Below are positions 18,639 through 26,482 of a stretch of DNA of 64,000 bases, one piece after another. Origin of the DNA: an uncultured Methylomirabilota bacterium (GTDB taxonomy: Bacteria; Methylomirabilota; Methylomirabilia; Methylomirabilales; 2-02-FULL-66-22); the NCBI GenBank assembly GCA_963705305.1, contig OY970067.1, positions 5,024,001 through 5,088,000 on the forward strand. The letters run 5' to 3'. The translations under genes were made by a program, and so were the position numbers. How positions within the stretch are numbered: the stretch's first letter is position 1; the number at the start of each line of letters is the position of its first letter. The notes below the pieces were generated by a model. It ran no database searches and was not told the DNA's origin. It saw only the letters and a list, made by a program, of their open reading frames with translations.

Positions 18639-19133
18639 CTATCCCTGACCGCGCTTCCCCAGCTGGCGGTCGAGCATGATCAGGGAGGGCTTGCTCTCGC
18701 CGATCATCTTGAACTGCTCCGCGATCAGGCCGGCGCTCTTCTCCTCCTCCACCTGCTCCGTGACGAACCACTGCAGAAGGACTTGGCTGGCGTAGTCGTT
18801 CTCCTTGACGGCCAGCGCGTATAGCTTGTGGATCGACTCCGTCACGCGCCGCTCGTGCTCCACCACCTGCTGAAAGATCTCCAGGGCCGACTTGAACTTC
18901 GCCGGGGGCTGGTCGATGGCCTTCAGAACCACCTGGCCGCCCCGATCGTTCACGTAGTCGAAGAACTTCATAGCGTGCGAGGTCTCCTCCTGGTATTGGA
19001 CCCGCATCCAGTGCGCCGTGCCGGGCAGGCTGTTCGTCTCGCAATGGGCCGACATGGCCAGATACAGGTAGGCCGAGTACAACTCCTTGTTGATCTGATC
19101 GTTGATCGCGTCTTGAATCGTCTTGGTCAGCAT
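18639..19133 (-). CDS. ftnA: Non-heme ferritin
   Basis: INDQINKELYSAYLYLAM, QEETSHAMK, EHERRVT, WFVTEQVEEE. Confidence 0.93.
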   Translation of the reverse strand: MLTKTIQDAINDQINKELYSAYLYLAMSAHCETNSLPGTAHWMRVQYQEETSHAMKFFDYVNDRGGQVVLKAIDQPPAKFKSALEIFQQVVEHERRVTESIHKLYALAVKENDYASQVLLQWFVTEQVEEEKSAGLIAEQFKMIGESKPSLIMLDRQLGKRGQG

Positions 19134-19251: not shown

Positions 19252-20610
19252 TCAGGCGGCGTTGATCATCTCATCCACACGCGGGTCGCTGGGCTTGAAC
19301 GGATCCTTGCACAGGATGGTCCGCTGGTACCGATCGTTCAGCTTGAGGTAGGACCACCCGACGTCGTACGACTTGTTCCGCTCGTTGGCGAAATTGATGA
19401 AGTCGGAGCGGACCTTGGCCCGGGTCGTCTGCGGCGGGGTGGTCATGGCTTCTTCGATCAGTGCGTCGCTGAACAGCCGGTCGACCTGTTCCTGCCGGCA
19501 GAGCATGTTGTACAGGCCCCGGTCCCGGCGGATGTCGTGGTACTGGAGGTCCAGCATGCTGATCCGCTGGTCGTCGAAGCCGATCCCCTTGCGCGCCATG
19601 TAGGACTGGATCAGCTCCTGCTTGATGACCCAGTCCAGCTCCCGCGCGCACTGCCGGGGCTCCTCGGCCAGCTTGTCCAGGATGGTCTGCCAGCGCTCGA
19701 GGAGGTCGCTCACCTGGGGGGAGGGCTCCAGGCCGGCGTAGTAGTCCAGGGCCAGCTCCAGGTACTCCCGCTGCAGCTCGATGGCGGAGAATTCCTTCCC
19801 CCGCTTCAGCCGGACCTTCCGCCGGCAGCTGGTGTCGTGGGAGATCTCCTTGATGGCCCGGACCGGATCCTCCAGGGCCAGGTCCTTCCGGATGGCCCCG
19901 TCCTCCACCATGGCCAGGACCAGGGCCGTGGTCCCCACCTTGAGGTAGGTCGTCACCTCGGACATGTTCGAATCGCCGACGATGACGTGCAGGCGCCGGT
20001 ACTTCTCCTCGTCGGCGTGGGGCTCGTCGCGGGTGTTGATGATGCCGCGCGAGCTGGTGGTGGCCCCCGAGATCTCCTGATAGATATGCTGGGCGCGCTG
20101 CGAGATGTAGTAGTGGTTGCCCAGCCGGGTCTTCAGCACCTTGCCCGCGCCGGCGAAGACCTGCCGCGTCACGAAGAAGGGAATCAGCTGTTCGGCCAGC
20201 TTGTGGAAGTTGGCCCCGCGCTCCACCAGGTAGTTCTCGTGACAGCCGTAGGTGTTGCCCACCGAGTCGGTGTTGTTCTTGAAGATGAAGATGTCGCAAT
20301 CGATGCCGTTCTCGCGCAGCTTGCGCTCCGCCGTGAGCAGGAGCTCCTCGATGACCCGCTCTCCCGCCTTGTCGTGCAGCGTGAGGTCGAAGGGGTTGTC
20401 GCACTCGGGCGTGGCGTATTCGGGATGGCAGCCGGTGTCCTGATAGAGCCGGGCCCCGTTGCGCAGGAAATCGTTGGTGCCGCGCTGGCGCGAGACGACC
20501 CGCTCGAAGAGATACCCGAGGGCGCTCTCCACCGAGAGGTTCACCCGGCCGCCGGCCGAGGAAGAGATCAGGCCGTACTCGTTCTCCAGCCCGAAAATTC
20601 GCCGCTGCAT
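19252..20610 (-). CDS. pafA: Pup-protein ligase
   Basis: MQRRIFGLENEYG, NGARLYQDTGCHPEYATPEC, GCHENYL, SQRAQHI, C-terminal KDPF; no Dop loop. Confidence 0.92.
   Translation of the reverse strand: MQRRIFGLENEYGLISSSAGGRVNLSVESALGYLFERVVSRQRGTNDFLRNGARLYQDTGCHPEYATPECDNPFDLTLHDKAGERVIEELLLTAERKLRENGIDCDIFIFKNNTDSVGNTYGCHENYLVERGANFHKLAEQLIPFFVTRQVFAGAGKVLKTRLGNHYYISQRAQHIYQEISGATTSSRGIINTRDEPHADEEKYRRLHVIVGDSNMSEVTTYLKVGTTALVLAMVEDGAIRKDLALEDPVRAIKEISHDTSCRRKVRLKRGKEFSAIELQREYLELALDYYAGLEPSPQVSDLLERWQTILDKLAEEPRQCARELDWVIKQELIQSYMARKGIGFDDQRISMLDLQYHDIRRDRGLYNMLCRQEQVDRLFSDALIEEAMTTPPQTTRAKVRSDFINFANERNKSYDVGWSYLKLNDRYQRTILCKDPFKPSDPRVDEMINAA
19522..20044. repeat. 523-bp direct repeat copy 1 (inside pafA)
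   Basis: Line-by-line identical to 22645-23167 (offset 3123). Confidence 0.95.
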
Positions 20611-20625
20611 GACGAGTGCGGGGGA

Positions 20626-21327
20626 TCAGGCATCCCCACTGCCCTCCTTTTCCACATAGGTCCGCAGCTCCGCCAGAGGAAGCCGTCGGAATTTCCGCCC
20701 CGGCCGCTCCCGCTCGAGGAGGGCCACTTCCAGGCTGGCCGCCTTCACCTGCTGGCTGGCCGCCGCCTCCAGGGCTCGGGTGGCCAGTTGGAGCGCGGCC
20801 TCCAGGCTGAGGCCCTCGCTGTACTTGTCGCGCAGAAAGATCTTCAGCTCCTCCGCCTGGCCGCCGATGCTCGCGTAGCCCTTCTCGTCGGCGATGCTGC
20901 CGTCGAAGGCGATCCGATACAGCTCGTTGCCGGCCGCTCCCTCCCCCACCTCCAGGACCAGGATCTCCACCTCCAGCGGCTTGATCTCCATGCTGAAGAT
21001 GTTGCCGATGACCTGGGAGTAAGCGCTGGCCAGTGATTTCGCCGTGACGTCCTCGCGACCATACGCGTACCCCTTCAGGTCGGCGTAGCGGATCCCCTCC
21101 TTGCGCAGCCGCTCGAATTCGCTGTACCTTCCCGCGCCGGCGAAGGCGATGCGGTCGTAAATCTCCGAGATCTTGTTGAGCGAGGCGCTGGGATTCTCCG
21201 CCACCATGAGCAGTCCCCGGTCGAACTCCAGGGCAATGATGGACTTCCCCTTGGCGATGCCCTTGCGGGCGTATTCCGCCTTGTCCTGCATCATCTGTTC
21301 GGGAGAGACGTAATAGGGCAGCGCCAT
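20626..21327 (-). CDS. prcA: 20S proteasome alpha subunit
   Basis: MALPYYVSPEQMMQDKAEYARKGIAKG, KISEIYDRIAFA. Confidence 0.95.
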   Translation of the reverse strand: MALPYYVSPEQMMQDKAEYARKGIAKGKSIIALEFDRGLLMVAENPSASLNKISEIYDRIAFAGAGRYSEFERLRKEGIRYADLKGYAYGREDVTAKSLASAYSQVIGNIFSMEIKPLEVEILVLEVGEGAAGNELYRIAFDGSIADEKGYASIGGQAEELKIFLRDKYSEGLSLEAALQLATRALEAAASQQVKAASLEVALLERERPGRKFRRLPLAELRTYVEKEGSGDA

Positions 21328-21400
21328 CGTTTGGCCCTCAGTGGTGGTGGCCCCGGCCGCCGGGAAGCGGATGTCGTCCTTCCCGCGCCCCGACGTGTCT

Positions 21401-21530
21401 CAGGGGCTCGCTGAAAAACTCGTTTGGCCCAGGCTGCGCAGACAGAACCACATGCGCGGGGACCCATCCGCAGGATGGGCACCCATCAGATGGGTACCCG
21501 GCAGATGGTCCTTTTTCAGCAGCCCGTTAG
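21401..21530. repeat. MITE/REP-like element family A, copy 3 (between prcB and prcA)
   Basis: GCTGAAAAA...CCCAGGCTGC...CCCATCC-GCA-GGATGGG...TTTTTCAGCAGCCCGTTAG; end overlaps the prcB TAA. Confidence 0.65.
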
Positions 21531-22324
21531 GCCGATCGGCGGGCGTTCACCAGGGTCTGGCAAACGGAGGCCACGCGATCCTCGGGAACATCCTGGGTCC
21601 CCTGCCGGGTCACCAGCTTGACAGTCGGAAAGATCCCCCGGACGAAATCCGGCCCGCCGGTCCCCCGGTCCTCGTCCGCGGCGTCGTACAGCGCCTCCAG
21701 ACCCGTCGCGATCGCTTCGGCCTCTTCCAGGCCCAGCCGGTAGAGCTTCTTGAGGCTGGAGCGGGCGTCCTTGCCGCCGGAGCCGATGGCGTAGTATTCG
21801 GCTTCGTCGTATCGGCCGCCAGCCACGTCGTACTTGTAGATGCGCCCCTCGTCACGGCGCAGGTCGTACCCGACGAAGATCGGCACGACCACCAGACCTT
21901 GCATGGCCAGGGGGAGGTTCGCCCGCACCATCTGGGCCAGGCGGTTGGCCTTGCCCTCCAGGCTCAGCCCCAGGCCTTCCAATTTCTCGTAGTGGGCCAG
22001 CTCGGTCTGGAAGAGCCGGACCATCTCGAGGCACGGTCCCGCGGCGCCCGCGATGGCGATGGCCGAGTGCTCGTCGGTCGCATACACCTTCTCGATCCGC
22101 CGCGAGGCCACCTGGTAGCCTTCGGTGGCCTGCCGGTCCCCGGCGATCACCACCCCCTGGCGGTACGTGAGGGCCAGCACGGTGGTCCCGGTGGGAACGG
22201 GCGGGGCGGTCTCGTGCGCCTCTCGCCCCTCCGCAGCGAACTGGGGCACGAGCTGCGGTTGGCGCTGGCGGACCAGGTCGAAGAAGCTGGAGCTGGCGTC
22301 GTTTTGGAAGAATGAAGGCTCCAC
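21527..22324 (-). CDS. prcB: 20S proteasome beta subunit (with propeptide)
   Basis: SSSFFDLV propeptide, PTG|TTVLA catalytic Thr1, AGDRQAT, GSGG; GTG start. Confidence 0.93.
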   Translation of the reverse strand: MEPSFFQNDASSSFFDLVRQRQPQLVPQFAAEGREAHETAPPVPTGTTVLALTYRQGVVIAGDRQATEGYQVASRRIEKVYATDEHSAIAIAGAAGPCLEMVRLFQTELAHYEKLEGLGLSLEGKANRLAQMVRANLPLAMQGLVVVPIFVGYDLRRDEGRIYKYDVAGGRYDEAEYYAIGSGGKDARSSLKKLYRLGLEEAEAIATGLEALYDAADEDRGTGGPDFVRGIFPTVKLVTRQGTQDVPEDRVASVCQTLVNARRSA

Positions 22325-22338
22325 GGAACGGACCCCTC

Positions 22339-23823
22339 CTAGCCGGCCAGCCGCTCCAGCAGCTCGGCCACACTCTCCGATCGCTCCAGAACCTCCCCCA
22401 CCAGCTTCCGCGTGCCCCGTCCGGGCTCCGCCATGGGAATCCGCTTGACCGTGGCGTCGCCCGTGTCCAGCAGCACGGAGCTCCAGCTCGCCCCGTAGAC
22501 CTGGGCGCCGAATTTTTGAAGACACATGCCCCGGAAGTACGCCCGCGTATCCGTCGGCGGATGGCCGGCGGCCCAGAGGATCTCGTCATCGCTCAGCAGC
22601 CGATCCACGTATCCTTCCCGCTCCATCCGGTAGTAGATGCCTTTGTCCCGGCGGATGTCGTGGTACTGGAGGTCCAGCATGCTGATCCGCTGGTCGTCGA
22701 AGCCGATCCCCTTGCGCGCCATGTAGGACTGGATCAGCTCCTGCTTGATGACCCAGTCCAGCTCCCGCGCGCACTGCCGGGGCTCCTCGGCCAGCTTGTC
22801 CAGGATGGTCTGCCAGCGCTCGAGGAGGTCGCTCACCTGGGGGGAGGGCTCCAGGCCGGCGTAGTAGTCCAGGGCCAGCTCCAGGTACTCCCGCTGCAGC
22901 TCGATGGCGGAGAATTCCTTCCCCCGCTTCAGCCGGACCTTCCGCCGGCAGCTGGTGTCGTGGGAGATCTCCTTGATGGCCCGGACCGGATCCTCCAGGG
23001 CCAGGTCCTTCCGGATGGCCCCGTCCTCCACCATGGCCAGGACCAGGGCCGTGGTCCCCACCTTGAGGTAGGTCGTCACCTCGGACATGTTCGAATCGCC
23101 GACGATGACGTGCAGGCGCCGGTACTTCTCCTCGTCGGCGTGGGGCTCGTCGCGGGTGTTGATGATGGGCCGCTTGGCCATCGTGTCCAGCCCGATCAGG
23201 GTCTCGAAGAAATCGGCCCGCTGGGAGAGCTGGAAGCGGCAGGGCTCCGTGCCGTTCTCGAAGCCGACCTTCCCCGAACCGCAGAAGACGATCCGAGAGA
23301 CCAGGAAGGTCGTGAGGCCCTCCACCAGCTTGTCGAACGGGACGCTGCGGGCCATCAGGTAGTTCTCGTGATATCCGTAGCTGTTTCCCTTCCCGTCGCT
23401 GTTGTTCTTGTAGATCATTAGCTGCTGAGAGGGTGGAAGCTTGCGGTTGGCCGCCTCGCGGCACTGGTCCGCCACGCGCTCCCCGGCCTTCTCGAAGAGC
23501 ACCAGGTCCCGGGCGTTGGTGGTCTCGGGGGTGGAGTATTCGGGGTGCGCCCCGTCCACGTACAGCCGGCCGCCATTGGTCAGGATCTTATTGATCGCCC
23601 GGTTGTCCTGCTGGCTGGGCCGCTCCCGCTCGCCGCTGGCCTCGAACCCTCGGGCGTCCAGCAGCGGATTCTCCCCCGCATAATCCCACATGACGCGGGG
23701 GGGCTGAGTCATCGGCAGCGCGTTGATGAGGAAGATGGAACTGCCTACGGGATCGAAGCCGGCGCCCTCCCGCGCCGTGATCCCGAATTCGGTCTCGCTC
23801 CCCATGATCTTGTCGATCGCCAT
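22339..23823 (-). CDS. dop: Pup deamidase/depupylase Dop
   Basis: GSETEFG, Dop loop WDYAGENPLLDARGF, LTNGGRLYVDGAHPEYSTPE, SQRADFFE, TRAYFRG. Confidence 0.92.
   Translation of the reverse strand: MAIDKIMGSETEFGITAREGAGFDPVGSSIFLINALPMTQPPRVMWDYAGENPLLDARGFEASGERERPSQQDNRAINKILTNGGRLYVDGAHPEYSTPETTNARDLVLFEKAGERVADQCREAANRKLPPSQQLMIYKNNSDGKGNSYGYHENYLMARSVPFDKLVEGLTTFLVSRIVFCGSGKVGFENGTEPCRFQLSQRADFFETLIGLDTMAKRPIINTRDEPHADEEKYRRLHVIVGDSNMSEVTTYLKVGTTALVLAMVEDGAIRKDLALEDPVRAIKEISHDTSCRRKVRLKRGKEFSAIELQREYLELALDYYAGLEPSPQVSDLLERWQTILDKLAEEPRQCARELDWVIKQELIQSYMARKGIGFDDQRISMLDLQYHDIRRDKGIYYRMEREGYVDRLLSDDEILWAAGHPPTDTRAYFRGMCLQKFGAQVYGASWSSVLLDTGDATVKRIPMAEPGRGTRKLVGEVLERSESVAELLERLAG
22645..23167. 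repeat. 523-bp direct repeat copy 2 (inside dop)
   Basis: Identical to 19522-20044, same reading phase. Confidence 0.95.
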
Positions 23824-23941: not shown

Positions 23942-25760
23942 TCAGAGGTAGTGACCCGTGGTGATGGTCTCGACCTTGCGCGGCTTCTTCTGCTCGCGAT
24001 CGAACACCGGACGAACGTGCACGATCCGCTCGCCCCGTCGTCCGGCAATCTTGGCCCAATCATCGGGGTTGGTCGTATTCGGAAGGTCCTCGTTCTCCCG
24101 GAACTCGGCTTTGACGGCCTCGATGAGGTCGCTCGCGGTGATGCCCTTCACCCCGCTGGTGATCATCCGCTTCACCGCGGCCTTCTTGGCCCGCGTGCAG
24201 ACGCTTTCGATCAGCGCCCCGCTGACGAAGTCCTTGAAGTAGAGCGTCTCCTTCTCGCCGGAGGCGTAGGTCACTTCGAGGAAGCGGTGGGCGTCGTCGG
24301 TCTCGAACATCTCGCCCAGGGCCGACTCGATCAGGCTGGCGACCGTGGCCGCCGGATCGTCCCGTTGCGCCGCCAGGGTGTCCGGGGCCAGCGGAAGGTC
24401 CGGGGTGAGGTACTTGGAGAAGATCTCCCGAGCGGCGTCCCGGTTGGGACGTTCGATCCGGATCTTGACGTCGAAGCGGCCGGGACGGAGAACGGCGGGA
24501 TCGATGAGGTCCTGCCGGTTGCTGGCCCCGATGACGACCACGTGGCGCAGCCCCTCCACCCCGTCCAGCTCGGCCAGGAACTGGGGCACGATGGTGGACT
24601 CGACGTCCGAGGAGATGCCGGATCCGCGCGTCCGGAACAGGGAGTCCATCTCGTCGAAGAAGACCACCACCGGGGCCCCGGCGCTGGCCTTCTCCCGGGC
24701 GCGGGCGAACACTTCGCGGATCTTGCGCTCCGTCTCCCCCACGTACTTATTGAGCAGCTCGGGACCCTTGACGTTGAGGAAGTAGGCCGGGCTGGGCGTG
24801 CCGGTCTGCCGGCTCAGCTGCTGGGCCAGCGCATTCGCCACCGCCTTGGCGATGAGCGTCTTCCCGCAGCCGGGCGGCCCGTACAGCAGGACCCCCTTGG
24901 GTGGGGCGAGCTTGTGGGCGGCGAAGTGCTCGGCGTAGAGGACCGGCAGCTCGATGGCGTCGCGGATCTGCTCGATCTGCGCCGCCAGCCCCCCGACGTC
25001 GTTGTAGGTGATGTTGGGGACTTCTTCCAGCACCAGGTCTTCCACCTCGGCCTTGGGCAGCTTCTCCAGCACGACCCCGGCCCGCGCATCCAGCCGCAGA
25101 TGGTCTCCCACCTGGAGCGGCACGTCGCGCAGCTGGGCCGAGAGCTCCACCACCCGCTCTTCGTCCGCACGGAGGCTGACGATGGCCCGCCCCTCGTCCA
25201 ACCGATCCTTCAGGCGCACCACCTCTCCCTGCAGGTCCTGGCCTCCCACGTCCACCACGTTCAGGGCCTCGTTCAGGACGACCTCTTGGCCCCGGTACAG
25301 CTCGCCGCTCTTGACCATGGGGGCAATGTTCACCTTCATCTTCCGGCCGCCGGTCCAGAACGTCCGCCGTGCTGTCTGGGTAATGCTGCAGGAAGATGCC
25401 GTAACTGGACGGAGGCGCGGCCAGCTTGTCCACCTCGGCGCGCAAGGAGGCGATCTGCTCCTTGGCCTGGTTCAGCGCGGCCACCAGGCGATCGTTCTGC
25501 TGCTGGGCTCGATCCAGCTGTTCCCGCGACTGGCTCAGCTTGTTGCGCAGGAACTCGAATTCCTTGGGGGTCTGTTCCAGCCGTCGCCGCAGGTGGAACA
25601 TCTCCTCTTCCAGCGCCTTGACCTGAGCTTGAAGATTCTCGATATCCATGGCATCTTGACCGAACGCCCGCGCGAGGGCGGGATCTGACTTCGAAGGTTG
25701 CCCGGAAAGCTTCTGCATCGTCTTTCGCAGCGAGTTGAGCCTGGTCTCGGAATCCCCCAT
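23942..25760 (-). CDS. arc: Proteasome AAA ATPase ARC/Mpa, interrupted by a +1 frameshift near 25354-25361
   Basis: Coiled coil ending [13 protein letters not shown] in one frame; GRKMKVN...GPPGCGKT...FFDEMDS...C-terminal GHYL in another; span 1819 nt = 3n+1. Confidence 0.88.
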
Positions 25761-26023: not shown

Positions 26024-26242
26024 TCAGTGGCTGCACGTCCCTCACCCGCTGCTGGTGCAGGTCCCGCACCCACCGCTGGTGGACCCGACAAATCCCCGCT
26101 CGCCTTTGAAGGCGAAGGTTGAGAACTGCCTGGTCACCTTTCCGCTCTCGCATTTGGGACAGCGCACCCGGCTCTGGCTGGACGCGACACGCTTCTCGAA
26201 GGCGTGCGCGCAGGCATCACAGACGTACTCGTAGATCGGCAT
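26024..26242 (-). CDS. FmdB-family zinc-ribbon protein, probable selenoprotein (Sec at codon 67)
   Basis: MPIYEYVCDAC...CPKC...GGCGTCTSSG(UGA)GTCSH*; UGA at 26042-26044 occupies the first position of a CxxC. Confidence 0.75.
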
Positions 26243-26284: not shown

Positions 26285-26482
26285 TCACTGGCCGCCCCGC
26301 TGCACATAACTCTTGACGAACTCTTCGGCATTCTCTTCCAGGACGTCGTCGATCTCGTCCACCAGCTTGTCCATATCCTCTTTCAGCTTCTTGCCCTTCT
26401 CCGTCGCCGCGGAGCGCGTTTGCTCACCCTCTCCCGCCGGCGGCCCCTCGGTTCGACGCTGCTTTCGCTCTTGCTCCGGCAT
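26285..26482 (-). CDS. pup: Prokaryotic ubiquitin-like protein Pup (C-terminal GGQ)
   Basis: LVDEIDDVLEENAEEFVKSYVQRGGQ. Confidence 0.95.
   Translation of the reverse strand: MPEQERKQRRTEGPPAGEGEQTRSAATEKGKKLKEDMDKLVDEIDDVLEENAEEFVKSYVQRGGQ

Follow-up and report, generated by a model that had tools for sequence, protein, structure and literature searches.

How does it come about that an enzyme that makes an isopeptide bond and an enzyme that breaks it are encoded, in part, by the same sequence, base for base? The question is posed by a window of 64,000 nucleotides (positions 5,024,001 to 5,088,000 of contig OY970067.1, assembly GCA_963705305.1) from an uncultured Methylomirabilota bacterium, in which the genes for the Pup-protein ligase PafA and for the depupylase/deamidase Dop are found 3.1 kb from each other, with the same orientation, within one Pup-proteasome gene cluster. 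A first-pass annotation, made from the sequence of the window, had claimed that the two genes share an identical internal tract of 523 bp, with divergent flanks and with edges at conserved family motifs, and had proposed gene conversion or concerted evolution as the cause, with the specificity of the two enzymes residing outside the shared segment. The analysis described here makes it highly probable that the cores of pafA and dop are subject to recurrent gene conversion and, hence, evolve in concert. The genes and the two copies of the tract are the following (positions are those of the window):

19252..20610, minus strand: pafA, Pup-protein ligase, 452 amino acids (TIGR03686, 572.2 bits against a cut-off of 551.3; AlphaFold model with a predicted template modelling score, pTM, of 0.90)
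22339..23823, minus strand: dop, depupylase/deamidase, 494 amino acids (TIGR03688, 573.8 bits against a cut-off of 492.3)
19522..20044, minus strand: putatively converted tract, pafA copy, codons 190-363 and the last base of codon 189; exact match to 22645-23167
22645..23167, minus strand: putatively converted tract, dop copy, codons 220-393 and the last base of codon 219; exact match to 19522-20044

An identical internal tract in pafA and dop

Exact alignment confirmed the coordinates and codons of the tract: all 523 bases of one copy are equal to those of the other, which makes this the longest exact run, at an offset of 3123 bases, and only scattered matches occur at the same offset beyond the edges. 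In the codon alignment of the two genes, there are no mismatches among the 522 aligned bases of the tract, and the flanks are as divergent as had been claimed, with nucleotide identity of 55% on the N-terminal side and 41% on the C-terminal side and protein identity of 36.5%. The edges indeed coincide with family motifs, the tract starting at IINTRDEPHAD and ending at DLQYHDIRRD. Given a background identity of about 55%, an exact run of this length cannot be due to chance. The complete 5.65-Mb genome, a single contig, contains exactly two copies of the tract, each matching at 100%.

Near-identical tracts across the order Candidatus Methylomirabilales

Within-genome comparison of pafA and dop was feasible in 20 genomes of the order Candidatus Methylomirabilales, those with both genes sufficiently intact (in the following, G000 is the genome of the window, the other G numbers denote related genomes, and L numbers denote loci or contigs). 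In 14 of these genomes, the tract is 0.965-1.000 identical between the two genes (hereinafter, homogenised), so that the relatives, far from displaying ordinary divergence across this segment, for the most part possess a near-identical tract of their own. Flank identity is 0.41-0.60 in all order genomes compared. The tract identities form two groups, one of at least 0.965 and the other of 0.73-0.91, as follows:

Homogenised tracts: G000, 1.000; G055, 1.00 (complete 2.75-Mb genome, 510 exact bases); G020, 0.998; G013, 0.992; G015, 0.992; G006, 0.990; G016, 0.989; G023, 0.987; G034, 0.987; G005, 0.985; G031, 0.985; G039, 0.981; G026, 0.966; G010, 0.965
Decayed tracts: G049, 0.90; G022, 0.83; G002, 0.80; G009, 0.79; G029, 0.74 (dop cut at the contig end); G025, 0.73

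Ten genomes, one of them G055, contain exact runs of 430-523 bases, the start of which is invariably at pafA nucleotides 566-570. By family code, homogenised tracts are found in 8 of the 10 genomes of f1, 3 of 4 in f4 and all 3 in f7, and decayed ones include the single f3 genome and the two f6 genomes. In G039, the tract is 0.981 identical despite the 11 kb that separate pafA from dop, and the decayed tract of G022 retains a short identical patch of 98 bases at its 5' end. At two of the loci, L037 (G020) and L040 (G010), dop was matched as two pieces in different frames, possibly through indel errors or because the genes are broken.

Outside the order, the picture is different. The control set consisted of 18 loci from other lineages, namely 7 of the KSB3/Moduliflexus type, 8 from Actinomycetota (the entire representation of this phylum), one labelled Rokuibacteriota, one Acidoferrum and one archaeon. 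At all 18, the tract is 0.47-0.66 identical and the rest of the genes 0.42-0.58, with longest exact runs of 9-27 bases. In all 15 genomes that belong to the same class but not to the order (L122-L137), the tract is 0.66-0.76 identical, with longest runs of 19-35 bases; the rest of the genes is 0.54-0.59 identical in 14 of the 15, the other being a partial, badly aligned locus. As judged from these values, there is no recent conversion in the control genomes. The excess of the tract over the rest of the genes is larger in the same-class genomes than in the Actinomycetota or KSB3 loci; this excess may be what is left of older conversion or may simply reflect higher conservation. In a phylum-wide protein search, the tract was found in 209 of 251 genomes, a tally that includes genomes marked as unpublished (G050, G075, G216 and G217), on which none of the other claims rests.

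Phylogeny and divergence of the tract

The check that had been suggested for this case is a separate phylogeny of each segment, with the tract expected to group by genome and the flanks by gene, and this is the pattern that we obtained. In the tree of the tract (46 rows, 16 order genomes and 7 outgroup genomes), pafA and dop are sisters by genome in all 16 order genomes, mostly with starred support, and the tracts of the outgroups cluster by gene. In the flank tree, pafA is separated from dop at 100/100 support, and the gene label changes 18 times on the tract tree versus once on that of the flanks. A single pafA clade for the tract is rejected by the approximately unbiased (AU) test, with a log-likelihood difference of 1621 (p 5.8e-44) and, within the order alone, p 3e-7. 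Together with the near-identical tracts, these trees uphold the original proposal of gene conversion or concerted evolution.

Over 120 pairs of genomes, the mean p-distance in the tract is 0.242 for the pafA copy and 0.248 for the dop copy, and that in the flanks is 0.212 for pafA and 0.264 for dop. Because the tract diverges between genomes in the same way as the flanks do, it is not frozen by selection at the nucleotide level, and because the version of the tract differs from one homogenised genome to the next, conversion must have occurred on many separate lineages rather than as one ancestral swap. These observations bear on a scenario whereby a single ancient swap in the ancestor of the order was followed by selection on the nucleotide sequence, for instance through an embedded RNA or an overlapping gene, that preserved both copies. 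Such a scenario would explain the constancy of the tract limits across all genomes, but it is at odds with the level of tract divergence between genomes (0.24, compared to 0.21-0.26 in the flanks), with the genome-specific tract sequences and with the rejection of the by-gene tree, and we consider its probability to be vanishingly small.

Base composition provides an additional, indirect indication. The GC content at third codon positions (GC3) is higher in the tract than in the flanks in 11 of 11 homogenised genomes, with a mean difference of +0.093; the mean difference is +0.030 in the decayed genomes (positive in 3 of 5) and -0.001 in the outgroups (positive in 3 of 7). GC-biased conversion is expected to raise GC3 in a converted tract, so the elevated values are compatible with what would be expected from such a process, although we regard them as a consistent trend among related genomes and not as a test.

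Limits of the tract and direction of transfer

In the alignment of 11 homogenised genomes, the last mismatch on the 5' side of the tract is at pafA nucleotide 566/567 in 10 genomes and at nucleotide 570 in G023. At this position, codon 189, PafA has Gly and Dop has Pro. Ahead of the Arg that precedes the tract, 13 codons read HIYQEISGATTSS in PafA and FFETLIGLDTMAK, or near variants thereof, in Dop; in the window, these segments are:

20050..20088, minus strand: PafA counterpart of the alpha-loop, codons 175-187, ending two codons before the tract and equivalent to the CgluPafA helix H188-S200 (PMC8599861)
23173..23211, minus strand: Dop alpha-loop, codons 205-217, ending two codons before the tract and aligned to AcelDop F208-K220 (PMC8599861)

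On the 3' side, the first mismatches are at nucleotides 1077-1082, after DLQ(Y/F)HD. In G000, the identity extends four codons further, to nucleotide 1089, and the Dop protein accordingly reads the PafA-type IRRD, which is seen in none of the 15 other order Dops in the alignment. The occurrence of a PafA-type sequence in Dop at this edge suggests that the latest event in G000 probably copied pafA into dop, at least at the 3' edge. Identification of the donor from NCBIfam scores of the tract alone (16 tracts) was not successful, in that PafA-type and Dop-type tracts are not separated outside Actinomycetota; for the Rokubacteria-like and KSB3 genomes, the Dop model is favoured for both the PafA and the Dop tracts.

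Assembly breaks at the repeat

A two-copy repeat is expected to cause a de Bruijn assembler to yield a separate 'middle' piece. This expectation fits the finding that, of the 69 loci retrieved, 18 consist of an entire contig of 2.6-3.4 kb, which begins inside the dop tract and ends inside the pafA tract. Furthermore, in 6 of 10 pairs of contigs from the same metagenome-assembled genome (MAG), the pafA-5' and dop-5' contigs end in identical stretches of 141, 141, 141, 141, 127 or 99 bases, and the 150 bases upstream of these shared ends are 33-91% alike; in a seventh pair, 133 bases are in common after trimming. The lengths 141, 127 and 99 are assembler word sizes, and identical contig ends of word length show that the repeats in the MAGs are true ones. 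One k55 assembly gives a repeat length of 510 bases. The intact loci with k141 contig names have decayed tracts, with longest exact runs of 26-98 bases; because an assembler with 141-base words cannot cross a longer exact repeat, intact loci under-represent the homogenised genomes.

Several MAG contigs are hybrids. Thus, L075 joins the N-terminal part of dop through the tract to the C-terminal part of pafA, L064 joins the N-terminal part of pafA to the C-terminal part of dop, and L104 has the same arrangement as L075, with a frame break. Such contigs are most simply explained as assembler paths that switched copy inside the repeat, although a real deletion variant between direct repeats is a possible source as well.

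The shared contig ends also bear on a technical explanation of the identity, namely that the two copies differ in the cell and that assembly or polishing wrote a single tract into both places. None of the sequencing runs examined contained the stretch (the best share was 0.16); of two runs, X1 gave 151-base pieces without mismatches, located outside the tract, and X2 represented a mixed community of relatives. Single-base errors are possible in this assembly, as indicated by a one-base insertion in the mpa gene of G000 that has no counterpart in four of four relatives. Yet polishing may mask a few differences but would not raise an identity of about 55-75% to 523 of 523, and 13 other genomes from different assemblies, among them the complete 2.75-Mb genome, have near-identical tracts with their own sequences, apart from the word-length contig ends that point to true repeats in the MAGs. 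Collapse as the general explanation is therefore very improbable; confined to G000, it leaves possible room for only a handful of hidden differences.

The tract and the determinants of specificity

What part of the two enzymes is shared? In the AlphaFold model of PafA (16-row alignment; pTM as given above; mean predicted local distance difference test score, pLDDT, 87), the tract covers two strands of the active-site sheet (191-192 and 204-209) and six helices (218-236, 249-258, 276-292, 298-316, 326-341 and 348-357). The sole stretch with a pLDDT below 50 is formed by residues 179-187 of the alpha-loop, upstream of the tract. The Dop-loop, which is described in PMC8599861, likewise lies outside the tract:

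23596..23712 (approximate limits), minus strand: Dop-loop, an insertion absent from PafA, with extra residues before the NKILTNGGRLY strand

This insertion contains VMWDYAGENP, and the alignment shows no such insertion before the catalytic-Asp strand in PafA.

Conversion of Dop into a ligase in the laboratory was achieved by deletion of the Dop-loop together with 20 substitutions (PMC7947786). The changes affect AcelDop positions 27, 31, 80, 81, 84, 93, an insertion, 95, 96, 101-103 and 452, and further include nine alpha-loop positions between 208 and 220 (PMC7947786). None of these falls within AcelDop 223-399, the equivalent of the tract, and the alpha-loop ends two residues before it (PMC7947786, PMC8599861). 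The published determinants of specificity are thus outside the tract, and the earlier suggestion that specificity is located outside the shared segment agrees with the mutagenesis data. Of the 48 'uniquely conserved' positions listed in supplementary file 4 of PMC7947786, 10 (numbers 34-43) are within the tract; most of these are conservative differences, and here they are the same in both enzymes. The contacts of PafA with its substrate reported in a 2026 preprint involve the SS hinge and the beta3-4 loop, an extended loop 196-216, and R442; the extended loop straddles the 5' limit of the tract and includes the family-wide IINTRDEPHAD motif. The available texts of PMC8599861, PMC3511204, PMC5952411, PMC12053664 and the 2026 preprint contain no residue list by which the Pup groove could be mapped onto the tract, the contacts being presented in figures.

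Outside the tract, both proteins display the features of their respective families. PafA has the GLENE motif at residues 7-11 (the GhExE nucleotide-binding motif) and the catalytic Asp, the invariant D58 in LYQDTGCHPEYATPE, followed by the PafA-type one-residue insertion; its margin over the TIGR03686 cut-off is small, and the Dop model also gives PafA 419.8 bits. The Dop alpha-loop retains E, G, L, T and K of AcelDop F208-K220. The residue after the Dop catalytic Asp is Gly in 16 of 16 Dops of the order, G000 included (VD-GAHPEY, in the region of 23538-23540 of the window), whereas all 7 outgroup Dops have His there (AcelDop H95, number 11 among the 'uniquely conserved' positions in PMC7947786), and His to Gly at this site is among the substitutions that turn Dop into a ligase (PMC7947786). 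This is a lineage-specific departure; by its hidden Markov model (HMM) score, its Dop-loop and its alpha-loop, the protein is still a member of the Dop family.

The Pup-proteasome gene cluster

The remaining members of the cluster and its immediate neighbour are:

20626..21327, minus strand: proteasome subunit gene, taken as prcA from its position (PF00227, 73.5 bits)
21527..22330 (start codon not fixed), minus strand: proteasome subunit gene, taken as prcB (PF00227, 123.3 bits)
23942..25760, minus strand: mpa/arc proteasomal AAA ATPase, read in two frames (AAA + proteasomal ATPase OB domains)
26042..26242, minus strand: small open reading frame for a four-Cys zinc ribbon, between pup and mpa
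26285..26482, minus strand: pup, 65 amino acids, C-terminal GGQ (PF05639, 77.2 bits)
18639..19133, minus strand: ferritin-like gene

In the direction of the minus strand, the order is thus pup, the zinc-ribbon reading frame, mpa/arc, dop, the two proteasome subunit genes, pafA and the ferritin-like gene, with pup located upstream of mpa rather than between dop and prcB. In the translation of the putative prcB, a propeptide-like stretch precedes the motif TTVLAL. The two copies of the tract are direct repeats that bracket the proteasome subunit genes. A Pup that ends in GGQ requires deamidation prior to ligation, so Dop must act on Pup ahead of PafA. The mpa/arc gene of G000 contains one extra T near 25351 (25340-25360, GACGTTCTGG), where four of four relatives read GACG-TCTGG or GACG-TGTGG; the extra base reflects a real frameshift or else an assembly error of one base. 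In a relative, G016, a fragment similar to the 55 C-terminal residues of PafA (82% identity; L051, 8264-8428) is found about 1.7 kb downstream of the complete pafA.

Probable recurrent gene conversion and its possible basis

We propose that the same internal segment of about 510 bases, encoding the pair of active-site strands and the helical bundle that lies behind their sheet, is repeatedly exchanged between the direct repeats by non-reciprocal homologous recombination, the core evidently being functional in either enzyme. Identical copies would be good substrates for recombination, and conversion would continually erase new differences, with the outcome of concerted evolution that has persisted while an order diversified. 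On the 5' side, the limit falls at the codon that follows the alpha-loop and its arginine, where the two genes carry unalignable, function-specific sequence; a heteroduplex would be unable to extend past this point, and a conversion that did cross it would swap a determinant of the reaction direction and be lost. Both limits might therefore be maintained by selection against moving specificity elements across them. We infer, rather than observe, the recombination pathway, any role of mismatch repair and the selection at the limits. Copies that drift past a threshold would stop converting and then decay; the two groups of identities and the 98-base patch in G022 fit such a self-sustaining process that halts once divergence defeats recombination.

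A different rationale for the same exchange is that conversion is itself favoured, because it keeps a shared Pup-handling core matched in the ligase and the depupylase, so that the writer and the eraser are tuned to one tag. Both enzymes bind Pup in homologous grooves (PMC8599861), the pattern spans at least three families (f1, f4 and f7), and, given the GGQ end of Pup, each tag would pass through Dop before it reaches PafA. Nevertheless, the decayed genomes retain both genes otherwise intact, other lineages with this pair of enzymes manage at 47-66% identity in the tract, and a self-sustaining neutral process explains the two groups of identities equally well, and we consider an adaptive benefit of this kind unlikely. 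Under this shared-module reading, the direct repeats would also permit occasional excision of the proteasome genes, leaving a Dop-N/PafA-C hybrid enzyme like those in the hybrid MAG contigs.

Several observations weigh against recurrent gene conversion as the general explanation, or at least restrict it. The tract has decayed to 73-91% in 6 of the 20 order genomes, so conversion is not universal in the order, and the genomes are related, so that the counts do not represent independent events, though each homogenised genome has its own tract sequence. It is the assembly that attests the lack of copy-specific differences in G000; short-read assemblers may hide a few differences, so the 100% values in MAGs are possibly slightly too high, and 3 of the 10 contig pairs have no terminal identical block, with matches of 99%, 93% and 100% elsewhere in them. 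The direction of transfer is not settled by the HMM scores, and the identities to outgroup tracts are mixed. Finally, that the products of both pafA and dop are active in this lineage is inferred.

Relation to known systems and significance

Long-lasting concerted evolution of paralogues by gene conversion is known in prokaryotes, with tufA/tufB as one case; what is unusual here is that it involves a core segment only, in enzymes of opposed activities. As in the 26 genes described by Wang and Chen in 2018 (PMC6053082), paralogues are closer within a genome than orthologues are between genomes, the identity includes synonymous sites, the pattern is seen repeatedly across deep divergences, and the genes belong to one pathway. 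In contrast to those cases, homogenisation is limited to an internal segment of about 510 bases, the products of pafA and dop are opposite in activity, and the limits of the homogenised segment coincide with function-determining elements (PMC6053082). Neither pafA nor Pup nor proteasome is mentioned in the main text of PMC6053082.

Compared with the canonical PafA and Dop of Actinomycetota (4B0R, 4B0T, 4BJR and 7OXY; PMC8599861, PMC7947786), the proteins of the window belong to the same two families and have the same fold, as far as the model indicates; in both pairs, the Dop-loop is present in Dop only and the alpha-loop regions differ between PafA and Dop. Unlike here, where the two tracts are identical, the tract is 48-65% identical between the genes in the 8 Actinomycetota loci. 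The laboratory conversion of Dop into a ligase by Hecht et al. in 2020 (PMC7947786) and the natural exchange both point to specificity in the N-terminal part, the Dop-loop, the alpha-loop and a single residue within the C-terminal domain; the former consists of engineered point substitutions in one enzyme, and the latter is an exchange of the whole core between both. A literature search, which most subscription journals were beyond the reach of, found no description of conversion between pafA and dop; in PMC7947786, NC10 comes up only as a lineage with sporadic possession of the genes, and neither 'recombination' nor 'concerted' is used.

The pafA-dop pair of Methylomirabilales thus represents a natural domain-swap experiment that has been repeated across many species. 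About 174 residues, comprising two active-site strands and the whole helical bundle, would be interchangeable between a maker and a breaker of isopeptide bonds, so that the determinants of reaction direction would be confined to the N-terminal 189 and 219 residues of PafA and Dop, respectively, with the Dop-loop and the alpha-loop, and to the last 89 and 101 residues, in line with the laboratory mutagenesis. On a practical level, short-read assemblies of this phylum break at the Pup-proteasome cluster because of the repeat, and the hybrid PafA/Dop contigs that it yields can mislead annotation and phylogenies of these enzymes. More generally, this case adds a segment-limited example, between functionally opposed paralogues, to the short list of lasting concerted evolution in prokaryotes.

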